This document shows positions 964 through 4,104 of a DNA stretch of 33,624 nucleotides, piece after piece (within the stretch, counting starts at the first letter, position 1; each line of letters begins with the position of its first letter). Source of the DNA: an uncultured Candidatus Rokubacteria bacterium (GTDB lineage Bacteria > Methylomirabilota > Methylomirabilia > Rokubacteriales > CSP1-6); assembly GCA_963789955.1 (NCBI GenBank), contig CAWBMV010000032.1, positions 1 to 33,624 of the forward strand. Direction: 5' to 3'. The notes below the pieces were generated by a model, which was given only the letters and a program-made list of their open reading frames with translations, had not been told where the DNA came from and searched no databases. The position numbers and the translations under genes were made by a program.

Positions 964-981
964 ACGCTTACCGGCGGGAGC

Positions 982-1390
982 TTACATCTTGCCATCGGCC
1001 TGGAACCAGGTGTAGTCCCACACGCTGAGCCGGTAGCTGGCGGTCGCCGGGTAAGCTCGGGATTTCGAAGTGTGCGCGCCCGAAGCCGCCCACGCCTCCG
1101 GGCACGTACGCGATCCGCTGGCCCACCACCGCCCCACCCGAGTCGATCGCCTGCGCGAGCACGCGAAGGCTGGTGGCGAACTCCCCGTTGTGGTTGTAGA
1201 CGTAGCCGGCGACCTTGCGCGAGCTCTGGCTCTGCTCGGTCGCCGTCCACTCGAACGAGAAGTGCTGCTCCCAGCCTGCCGTCAAGGTCGTGGCCGTCAT
1301 GCTGAGAGGAGGCGCGGCGCCGGTTTCCGCGCACGCCGCGCTCATCGTCGCAATCAGACCGAGCAGGAGGCCGAGGCGAATCGCTTTCAA
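982..1390 (-). CDS. Small hypothetical lipoprotein (beta-rich, FxLYD-like); probable +1 frameshift near 1050
   Basis: TTG start with AGGA upstream, 10 nt after the peroxiredoxin stop; lipobox-like MSAAC. Removing one base at 1049-1052 gives the C-terminus FEIPSLPATASYRLSVWDYTWFQADGKM with TAA at 982-984. The uncorrected ORF ends at 968. Confidence 0.65.
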
Positions 1391-1400
1391 GGAGCGGTCC

Positions 1401-1961
1401 TCATTTCATCGACAAGTTCGCGGCCTTCACGGCCGCCAGCACTTCGGCCGGCTCGAGGAGATTCAGCGGACTGTCCATGACCTTGACGTATTTGATGGTC
1501 CCCGTCTTGTCGATGATGAAGTACGCCCGCTTCGCATAGCGGTAGACCGGGCTGGCTTCGTTCATCTCCATGGCACCGTACGCTGGCAGCATCTGTCGGC
1601 GGAAATCCGAGAGGAGGAGCTGCTTGGAGTGCTGATCCTTCTGCCACGCGGCGAGCGCGAGGTGATGATCGGTGCTAACGCCCACGACCTGGGCGCCGGC
1701 GGCTTCGAACTGCGGCAGCGCAGCCTCGAAACCGGCAAGCTCTTTGGTTCACGTCGGGGTGAACGCGGCGATGAAGGTATAGATGACGACGGGCCCTTTG
1801 GCCGTCAGGTCCGACAGCTTGACCGGCTTGCCGTCAGTCCCGTTGAGGGCGAAGTCGGGCGCTTTCTGCCCGGCCTCCAGGGCGACGGCCGCGCTGGTCA
1901 GGACCAGGACGGCGAGCGCGCTCAGGACGAGAATCCGGCTCACGGCGCGTGTGGTAGACAT
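1401..1961 (-). CDS. Secreted peroxiredoxin (AhpC/TSA fold, AhpE-like), probable selenoprotein with Sec encoded by TGA at 1749-1751; 186 aa
   Basis: ATG at 1961 after GGAGGAG, then a signal peptide and GQKAPDFAL...VKLSDL...VVIYTFIAAFTPT-[TGA]-TKELAGF...VVGVSTD...LLSDF...AYG...KRAYFIIDKTGTIKY. The two ORF-track pieces are in the same frame, and the TGA aligns to the peroxidatic Cys. Confidence 0.9.
1701..1748 (-). promoter_or_regulatory. Candidate bacterial SECIS element
   Basis: Immediately 3' of the UGA the mRNA reads ACCAAAGAGCUUGCC GGUUUCGA G GCUGCG CUGC CGCAGU UCGAAGCC. By eye this folds into 8-bp and 6-bp stems with a G bulge and an apical loop about 30 nt from the UGA. Several A/T-ending codons (AAA, CTT, GGT, GCT) are atypical for this DNA. 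Confidence 0.6.
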
Positions 1962-2090: not shown

Positions 2091-4104
2091 ATGACCGCGA
2101 TCCCGTCGTCCCGTCGGCACTTTCTCGCTGGGGCCGCGTCGGCGACCGCCGGGCTTTTGCTTCCGCGGCCGGCGCGCTCCCAACCGGCGAGCGCTCGCCA
2201 GCTCGTTTCGCGCGAGACGTTCTTCGGCGATCCGGATGTCGCCTGGGCTCAGCTCTCGTTCGACGGCGCCTGGGTCGCGTACATCGCCCCGGTCGCCGGG
2301 GTGCGCAACCTCTGGGTGGCGCCAATCGACGATCTCCGCGCCGCCAGGCCCGTCACCCGGGTGACTGAACGCCCGATCGGATCCTTCTTCCAGTGGGCGT
2401 ACACGAACCGGCACGTCGTCTTCTTCGAGGAGCGGGACGGCGACGAGAACTGGCGCGCGTCGAGCGTCGACATCCACGACGGCACGATCGTCACGCTGAC
2501 GCCTCCGCGCGGCGTGCGCGCGTGGGTGCAGGAGGTCAGCCAGCGCTTCCCGCGCGAGATGCTATTCAGCCACAACGAGCGTGAGAAGCAGTTCTTCGAC
2601 ATCTTCCGCGTCGACGTCGTGACGGGAAAGTCCGAGCTCGTGTACGAGAACCACCGGTTCGCGTGGCTCGTCACCGACAGCTCGTTCCAGCTGCGGCTCG
2701 GCATCCGATTCCTCAAGGACGGCAGCGTCGAGGTGCTCGAGCGTCGGCCGAGCGGAACCTGGATGCCCTTCATGTCGATCGCCCGCAGCGAGGTCGATGC
2801 CACCCGGCTGCTCGACTTCAGCGCCGATGGCAAGACGCTCTACCTCTTCGACGCGCGGGACCGCGACAAGGCCGCGCTCATGGGCATCGACATGGGCACG
2901 CGCCGCGCGCGGGTGATCGCCGAGGATCCCGCGGCGGACGTCACGAAGGTGCTGCTCCACCGGGTCACGCGAAAGCCGCTCGCGGCGGCGGCGATGGTCG
3001 ATCGCCGGCGATGGCGGCCGGCGGAGCCGAGCTTCGCGGCGGATCTGAAGGCGATCCAGTCGTCGACGTCGGGCGACGTCGATCTGGTCGGCCTCAGCGC
3101 CGACGCGAGCCGGGTCATGGTCCTCGTGCAACACGACGCCGCGAGCCCGGAATGGACGATCTACGACCGCGCGACGCGCCGGGTGCGTCCGCTCTTCAAG
3201 GCACGGCGAAGCCTCGACGGCGTGCCGCTCCGGCCGCTCGAGCCGGTGACCTTTCCGGCGCGGGACGGTTTGAAGCTCCAGGGTTATCTGACTCGCCCGG
3301 CCCCGGACGCGCGCAATGTGCCGATGGTGCTGGTGATCCACGGCGGGCCGTATGCCCGGGACGAATGGATTCAATCCGACTCACCAGTGGCTCGCCAATC
3401 GCGGCTACGCGGTCCTGAGCATCAACTACCGGGGCTCGACCGGCTTCGGCAAAGCCTTCGTGACTGCCGCCGACCGCGAGTGGGGCGGCAAGATGCACGA
3501 CGACCTGATCGCCGGCGTCGACTGGGCGGTCGCGCGCGGTATCGCCGATCCCAAGCGGGTCGGCTTCTACGGCGGGAGCTATGGCGGTTACGCGGCGCTC
3601 ACCGCGGCCACCAAGACACCGGACGTGTTCGCGTGCATCGTCGACATCTATGGCATCGCCAATCTAATGACCTTCATGGCGGCGATCCCGCCCTACTGGG
3701 GCCCGTCGTTCAGCGTCTGGAAGAACCGCCTCGGCGATCCGGACACCGAAGAGGGTCGGGCGTTTCTCCGAGAGCGCTCGCCCTTGACGCACATCGATCG
3801 CGCCTTCCGGCCGATCCTGATCGTCCAGGGTCTCGAGGACGTGCGCGTGACCCGCGCCGAATCCGAGCAGATGGTGGCGGTGCTGCAGCGCCGCAACGTG
3901 CCGGTGACGTACGTCGTCTTTCCCGATGAGGGCCACGGCTTCTCGAAGCCGAAGAACCAGATCGCCTTCCGCGCGGTCACCGAAGCCTTCCTCGCCAAAC
4001 ACCTCGGCGGCACCGCCCAACCCATCGACCGCACGAAAGACTTCGCCGGCTCATCCCTCACCGTCGAAGTAGGCGCCGACCTAATCCCCGGCCTCTCCGG
4101 CTAG
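2091..4104 (+). CDS. S9 family (prolyl oligopeptidase/dipeptidyl aminopeptidase-like) serine peptidase, Tat-exported; frameshift near 3367
   Basis: Twin-arginine motif SRRHFL and a beta-propeller-like N-terminal region, then VIHGGPYARDEW. The second frame continues with GFNPTHQWLANRGYAVL, nucleophile GGSYGG, QGLED and DEGHGF. GAATGGATTC lacks two G relative to the expected EWGF. Confidence 0.9.

Follow-up and report, generated by a model that had tools for sequence, protein, structure and literature searches.

Selenocysteine (Sec)-containing peroxiredoxins are an established bacterial protein family (PMC13188914; PMC1794560), in agreement with what a preliminary description of the DNA studied here had stated. 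The peroxiredoxin (Prx) selenoprotein family was defined by Zhang et al. (PMC1794560) based upon the PF00578 domain together with a T/SxxU motif, and 12 bacterial members are given in Table 1 of their paper. PrxU of Eubacterium acidaminophilum (Sohling 2001, as cited in PMC13188914) is a described Sec-Prx, and the longer motif PxxxTxxU has been reported in a review to be highly conserved in such proteins (PMC13188914). For Prx in general, Pro, Thr, Cys, and Arg have been called absolutely conserved, and PrxL of Caulobacter, a Prx-like protein without those residues, showed no detectable peroxidase activity (PMC3322552). The ScsB-TlpA-PprX pathway of Caulobacter (Cho et al., 2012; PMC3322552) includes an exported Prx of the BCP/PrxQ type, PprX, for which TlpA is the inferred reductant; PprX itself, of the two-Cys type, possesses the complete P/T/C/R set. 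Additionally, a Methylomirabilota metagenome-assembled genome with 63 predicted selenoprotein genes has been reported (Deng et al., 2026, as cited in PMC13188914), and the occurrence of a Sec-peroxiredoxin in the Methylomirabilota as such will be no surprise to the specialist.

The gene described here lies in a window of 33,624 nucleotides, the whole stretch of DNA that was analysed, which constitutes the entire contig C32 of a Rokubacteria genome (68% GC, 87% complete, 5% contaminated). It consists of a single 186-codon frame on the reverse strand (positions 1961–1401), interrupted by one internal TGA at codon 71 (1751–1749) in the context ...FIAAFTPT*TKELAGF..., and it is preceded on the same strand by a strong ribosome-binding site, the Shine-Dalgarno sequence AGGAGGAG (1971–1964); similar purine-rich sites precede most of the orthologues. 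The read-through product, which ends at a terminal TGA, has 186 residues with no cysteine and one inferred Sec. This translation bears out the earlier proposal that the two ORF fragments reported by a mechanical ORF caller (one ending at 1749, the other of 94 aa at 1685–1401) are one frame split only by the TGA. The expectation that standard pipelines would call fragments was also correct, as C-terminal fragments of 102–115 aa make up most of the best 120 listed database matches, and six full-length records (P0002, P0003, P0004, P0006, P0007, and P0008) are mis-read with Trp at this column. A gene that is common in a soil lineage is thus recorded as fragments or with a false Trp, and part of the redox repertoire of this lineage is hidden.

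The protein shares with the Prx selenoprotein family the PF00578 domain, the TxxU motif, a UGA-encoded Sec and the existence of Cys-containing homologues. In contrast to that family, it has a signal peptide-like start, no Pro at position −7 and no Cys anywhere. It is a variant of an established family, marked by its predicted export, the loss of Pro and a candidate SECIS with an atypical loop. A literature search covering titles, abstract openings and few subscription papers brought up no account of a Sec-Prx clade that is exported and without the Pro; supplements or BSepDB may list it, and the BSepDB main text (PMC13326102) contains no mention of Prx, peroxiredoxin, AhpC, Rokubacteria, or Methylomirabilota.

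Fold, active site and predicted activity

The protein matches PF00578 (AhpC/TSA) over residues 31–159 with 109 bits (cut-off 26). Its best sequence matches among known structures are archaeal BCP/PrxQ proteins (E 1.6e-24 to 3.1e-20), and the TGA aligns to the peroxidatic Cys of the Aeropyrum BCP/PrxQ 2CX3 (FFPAAFSPVCTKEL). An AlphaFold model, with Sec modelled as Cys, has a pLDDT of 92 over the mature part and matches the fold of Sulfolobus Bcp4 (3HJP) with a TM score of 0.88 at 34% identity, i.e. the predicted fold is that of a Prx. The archaeal BCP/PrxQ structures (2CX3/4GQF, 3HJP, and 2YWN) have in common with it the segment xxAF[ST]xx(C/U)TKE and the Arg; unlike it, they contain the Pro and have no signal peptide ahead of the domain. 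None of the NCBIfam Prx models reaches its cut-off, the best score being 63.7 bits against BCP (PRK09437, cut-off 140), and the PrxU model NF040737 gives 43 bits (cut-off 270).

The motif in this protein reads I-x-x-x-T-x-x-U, where T68-P-T-U71 corresponds to T/SxxU. Thr68 (1760–1758) is present in most orthologues and is replaced by Ala or Asn in 8 of 31, which consequently depart from T/SxxU. Ile64 (1772–1770) is found where the Prx-conserved Pro is expected, and alignments and the clade comparison indicate that this Pro is absent from all 36 clade members, Sec and Cys forms alike. The conserved Prx arginine is retained as Arg145 (1529–1527; R119 in mature numbering), which is invariant in 19 of 19 rows of alignment A2, and the Glu three residues after Sec is also kept. 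The resolving Cys of 2CX3, which we take to lie five residues after the peroxidatic Cys, corresponds in position to Ala76, where the 2CX3 alignment has no identity.

The preliminary description had placed the TGA within a PxxxTxxC motif and called the protein a peroxiredoxin. The position on the peroxidatic Cys column holds, as does the assignment by PF00578, TxxU, Arg and fold, but the canonical Pro is replaced and the curated Prx cut-offs are not reached. Judged by its sequence, the protein belongs to the Prx selenoprotein family as defined by T/SxxU, but not to Prx in the full canonical definition. Peroxidase activity remains likely, though the loss of the Prx proline makes it less certain than previously stated; the predicted activity is that of PrxQ, which the protein probably resembles in its mode of action. 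One may speculate that the loss of Pro is tolerated as a selenolate needs less activation. The clade, whose Cys forms can serve as controls, is a natural setting in which to learn which active-site residues of Prx are made dispensable by selenium.

Other proteins show further variation in these residues. Three Sec-Prx paralogues without Pro and Thr were noted, with the motifs GADFAPAU (C34:114116, reverse strand), GVDFAPTU (C25:9684, forward strand) and CYDWGGIU (C1:621440, forward strand); the first two look exported and both have canonical SECIS loops. Two clade-like proteins, P0010 and P0232, carry Gly or Asp at the catalytic column and are possibly inactive forms or sequence errors.

Export and putative redox partner

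Residues 1–27 (1961–1881) resemble a signal peptide, with a basic start, a hydrophobic core and an A-V-A cleavage-like site. By a simple rule combining hydrophobicity with A-x-A, 30 of 31 clade members have a signal-like N-terminus, and the precursor is very likely exported. Among Cys relatives such a start is seen in 13 of 18 Pro-less proteins (five of these 13 having been added deliberately as close homologues) vs. 13 of 97 that bear the Pro. In this soil lineage Sec then appears to act outside the cytoplasm, which, if the host is aerobic, contrasts with the view of PMC13188914 that selenoproteins are seldom retained by aerobic bacteria.

A gene for a Sec-TlpA with the motif W-x-T-W-U-x-x-C adjoins the Prx gene in 17 of 30 orthologous loci (flanks mostly of about 1.5 kb, three shorter), downstream in 16 and upstream in one. 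No TlpA gene is adjacent to Prx in the window's genome, where Sec-TlpA is found elsewhere: for 16 of the 17 neighbouring Sec-TlpA genes the best match in this genome, with 61–71% identity, is C34:120311, a signal peptide-bearing, TlpA-like UxxC selenoprotein. A CcdA-type gene with a Cys-TlpA upstream is present at C6:158–159.5 kb (CcdA/DsbD-type, C6:158896). In the window's genome and its closest relatives the place of TlpA after Prx is taken by a small lipoprotein-like gene (968–1390, reverse strand) with a DUF1425/YcfL-like lead, which was found in 11 of 31 other TGA-bearing loci searched. The window's copy contains one extra base near 1049, which is absent from all four sequencing runs compared and is an assembly error; an intact copy of 137 aa is present on C1. 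The DUF1425 lead comes from Atlas features (0.94). A paralogue of this gene occurs at C1:909 kb, and the gene is conserved behind Prx in the genus.

Based upon these observations, cleavage of the precursor would leave a 159-aa protein of BCP/PrxQ fold in the cell envelope, with the selenium of Sec71, flanked by Thr68 and Arg145, as its only redox-active atom. By the known chemistry of Prx, the selenolate probably attacks H2O2 or organic hydroperoxides to yield a selenenic acid. As there is no resolving Cys, an outside thiol or selenol must resolve this acid. By analogy with the Caulobacter ScsB-TlpA-PprX system, the TlpA encoded at C34:120311 is somewhat favoured as the resolver, fed by a CcdA/DsbD-type carrier such as C6:158896, and electrons would pass from CcdA to Sec-TlpA, Sec-Prx and peroxide in turn. 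The two systems have in common an exported BCP/PrxQ-type Prx with TlpA as its inferred reductant. They differ in that both partners here use Sec and the Prx is without a resolving residue, and in that the candidate membrane carrier found here is a CcdA-type match to DsbD_TM. Taken as a whole, the explanation that this gene encodes an intact envelope peroxidase with one selenol, re-reduced by Sec-TlpA, appears fairly probable. A wider proposal, in which a Rokubacteria-centred clade of exported, Cys-free and Pro-less selenoenzymes forms an all-selenium envelope relay with Sec-TlpA, with non-canonical chemistry and a SECIS outside the bacterial model, is put forward here only tentatively.

Among the other explanations, the one that survives best accepts both Sec and export, but sees in the protein mainly an envelope selenol redox relay or a repair protein (acting, for example, upon oxidised thiols or sulfane sulfur), similar to PrxL of Caulobacter. 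The loss of Pro throughout the clade and the variability of Thr, Cys forms included, speak for such a role, as do the excess of signal-like starts among the Pro-less Cys relatives, with the reservation on sampling given above, and the behaviour of PrxL itself. The retention of Arg145, of Thr68 (in this protein) and of the Glu after Sec argues against it, and the nearest structures, by sequence as well as by fold, are true BCP/PrxQ peroxidases. We consider a relay or repair role rather unlikely in comparison with the peroxidase function.

Reading of the internal TGA codon

The conservation of the TGA was examined in 50 loci, of which 20 came from a scan of GTDB species genomes and 30 were the best from 41 related genomes, the window's own included. 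Apart from the window's own, 30 orthologous loci (43–94% identity) extend across the column, and every one has the TGA; two close loci end short of it. Beyond these, a TGA is also found in one distant paralogue, and TGC or TGT in 15 of 16 distant loci. The closest named orthologues, with 82, 63, and 59% identity, are from Rokubacteria/Methylomirabilota. Full-length matches with Cys at this column include P0014, P0030, P0047, P0054, and P0064 (49–56% identity). Hence, a check of the homologues for their codon at this site gives TGA in 30 of 30 other orthologues and Cys in six close homologues, and the UGA aligns with a conserved Cys, as is characteristic of selenoprotein genes.

A quick IQ-TREE tree of 115 rows, which omitted CxxC rows, sequences longer than 260 aa and roughly half of the rows with the Pro but no signal, contains a clade of 30 Sec and six Cys rows with an SH-aLRT support of 99. 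The Cys rows are nested within it, with Sec-bearing rows as their nearest neighbours, and this unrooted tree therefore suggests that the Cys forms arose by Sec-to-Cys reversion.

That the TGA is a true conserved stop, separating two pieces or bringing about a regulated truncation, is very improbable. In its favour, the gene fails the strict SECIS filter (see below), but the terminal stops of the 30 orthologues and the window (TGA in 20, TAG in five, TAA in five, one cut off) have drifted to TAA or TAG in 10 of 30 readable cases, whereas the internal TGA has done so in none of 31. As all 30 loci keep the internal TGA while their terminal stops vary, its invariance is beyond chance. Further, the break falls within one compact domain, and gene callers place the second start at differing codons (giving 102–115 aa).

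Of 25 orthologues compared codon-by-codon, the 15 with more than about 75% identity all show an excess of silent changes over replacements both before and after the TGA; for the 10 distant ones the balance is mostly the reverse, as expected at such distance. These counts come from related loci that are not independent and do not amount to formal tests. A second TGA-bearing copy of the gene is found on contig C1; it differs from the window's copy at 14 bases, and 13 of these differences are silent. Additionally, contigs (not raw reads) from four runs of four other studies span the codon with no listed change: in runs X4 and X18 every difference is accounted for and the codon is unchanged, while for X1 and X13 some differences are not displayed. 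Contigs from RNA libraries cover the gene in three studies, although such contigs say nothing on transcription or its level.

In view of these results, a sequencing error or recent nonsense mutation in a pseudogene has a negligible probability: the assembly does contain indel errors (the base at 1049 and a frameshifted selD), but the TGA recurs in the copy on C1 and in all 30 other loci, runs X4 and X18 carry the codon unchanged, and purifying selection has acted downstream of it. The reading of TGA as Trp (code 4 or 25), to which the six records with W at the column could be taken to point, is equally remote and is excluded by the use of TGA as the main stop codon of the genome, in which 638 of 1117 long ORFs terminate with it; the genome also has a tRNA-Trp(CCA); the W-read proteins P0003, P0004, P0006, and P0007 moreover overrun the common C-terminus of the family, and with Trp at the catalytic column the protein would be left without a redox residue.

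The UGA at codon 71 is almost certainly read as Sec. This reading, already inferred in the preliminary description, is supported by the invariance of the TGA, the Cys homologues, the purifying selection, the independent assemblies and the Sec machinery of the genome and of nearly all relatives.

SECIS region and selenocysteine machinery

A long stem-loop is predicted between +19 and +51, counted from the U of the UGA (1733–1701, reverse strand), and it is also predicted in most orthologues. Over a segment chosen for this comparison after the fold had been seen, the distal stem exceeds synonymous recodings in stability in each of the 31 clade members (z −0.5 to −2.9). For the gene studied here the value is z −1.4 (12 of 200), and control segments in the same genes show no such excess; against dinucleotide shuffles its region is unremarkable (z −1.63, 14 of 200). 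For the 3' Glu, GAA is the codon used in 17 of 24 cases vs. 15% genome-wide, a preference which favours pairing of the stem. Covariation in the distal stem amounts to 21 cells (0 of 500 shuffles), but it is not strong support, since most of the double changes come from one subclade and accompany amino acid changes, and this subclade has a canonical hairpin of its own.

A canonical bacterial SECIS has G followed by G or U at the start of its loop, a stem of at least 4 bp and a distance of 16–37 nt from the UGA, and the distal loop is without this conserved G then G or U. A strict filter was home-made after the model in PMC13188914, the lower limit on spacing being relaxed to 12 nt. Of the other family-validated TGA sites of the genome, 28 of 32 passed it (selD was counted and failed) vs. 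32 of 200 Cys-codon controls. Of the sites filtered, the first 34 had been hand-picked from 49 after their folds were seen, and four of the 15 others, filtered later, pass. Both in-genome copies of the Prx-like gene fail, and six of 31 clade members pass. The gene passes a loose filter, as do 137 of 200 controls; its loop in this case is GCUGCC, at a distance of 29 nt and in a fold lying 1.4 kcal above the local optimum. Some bacterial SECIS elements do not fit the model (PMC13188914). The distal stem is the best SECIS candidate of this gene. A weak alternative, the proximal hairpin GCC-GGUUUCGA-GGC (1736–1723; −6.8 kcal/mol), has a canonical-looking loop and was rejected as a conserved SECIS, with 58.6% of cells paired vs. 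57.8% when the register is slid by one.

The Sec machinery that the preliminary description had proposed to look for is present, selD being frameshifted in this assembly. The genes selC, for tRNA-Sec(UCA), selA and selB are clustered at C1:732–737 kb, all above curated cut-offs and the frames open. The selD gene (C6:164353–165326; 304 bits), which has its own CAGU (CxxU) codon, contains one frameshift about 50 codons in; this is likely an assembly error, as 34 of 40 relatives have full-length selD with one TGA. Among 41 genomes, selD, selA, and tRNA-Sec are present in 38, 37, and 36, respectively. Much of C32 matches C1:587–606 kb at 89–96% identity and many small contigs duplicate large ones, from which it is probable that the window comes from a co-binned sister population. 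An S9 peptidase gene of the window (2091–4104, forward strand), split by a frameshift near 3370, has no counterpart at the corresponding position of C1. A strong EF-Tu-like match (C34:313830–314730), whose identity is inferred from the SelB profile only, is split over two frames, which fits indel errors. The 'tRNA-???' reported by aragorn at C1:751321 looks like a GC-rich false match and was rejected.

The genome is rich in selenoproteins, as is that of Deng et al. (2026), with at least 32 other family-validated TGA sites, a few of which may be co-binned duplicates. These comprise selD and 31 in-frame TGA sites inside a Pfam or NCBIfam domain (loci L075, L081, L086–L113, and L119); 11 of 40 candidate sites, at which no Pfam or NCBIfam family spans the TGA, were dropped as probable ordinary stops. 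The 31 sites include seven UGSC, six Prx or Prx-like, five AhpD/YciW-like, three TlpA/ResA-like, two PrdB/GrdB-like, and two DsbA-like proteins, and a single site each in PDO, SelW/Rdx, FdhA, ArsC-like, CYCXC, and DsrE. A second tRNA-Sec-like match of 50–53 bits (gathering threshold 47) was observed in nine relatives outside the window's family (G026, G030–G034, G037, G038, and G040).
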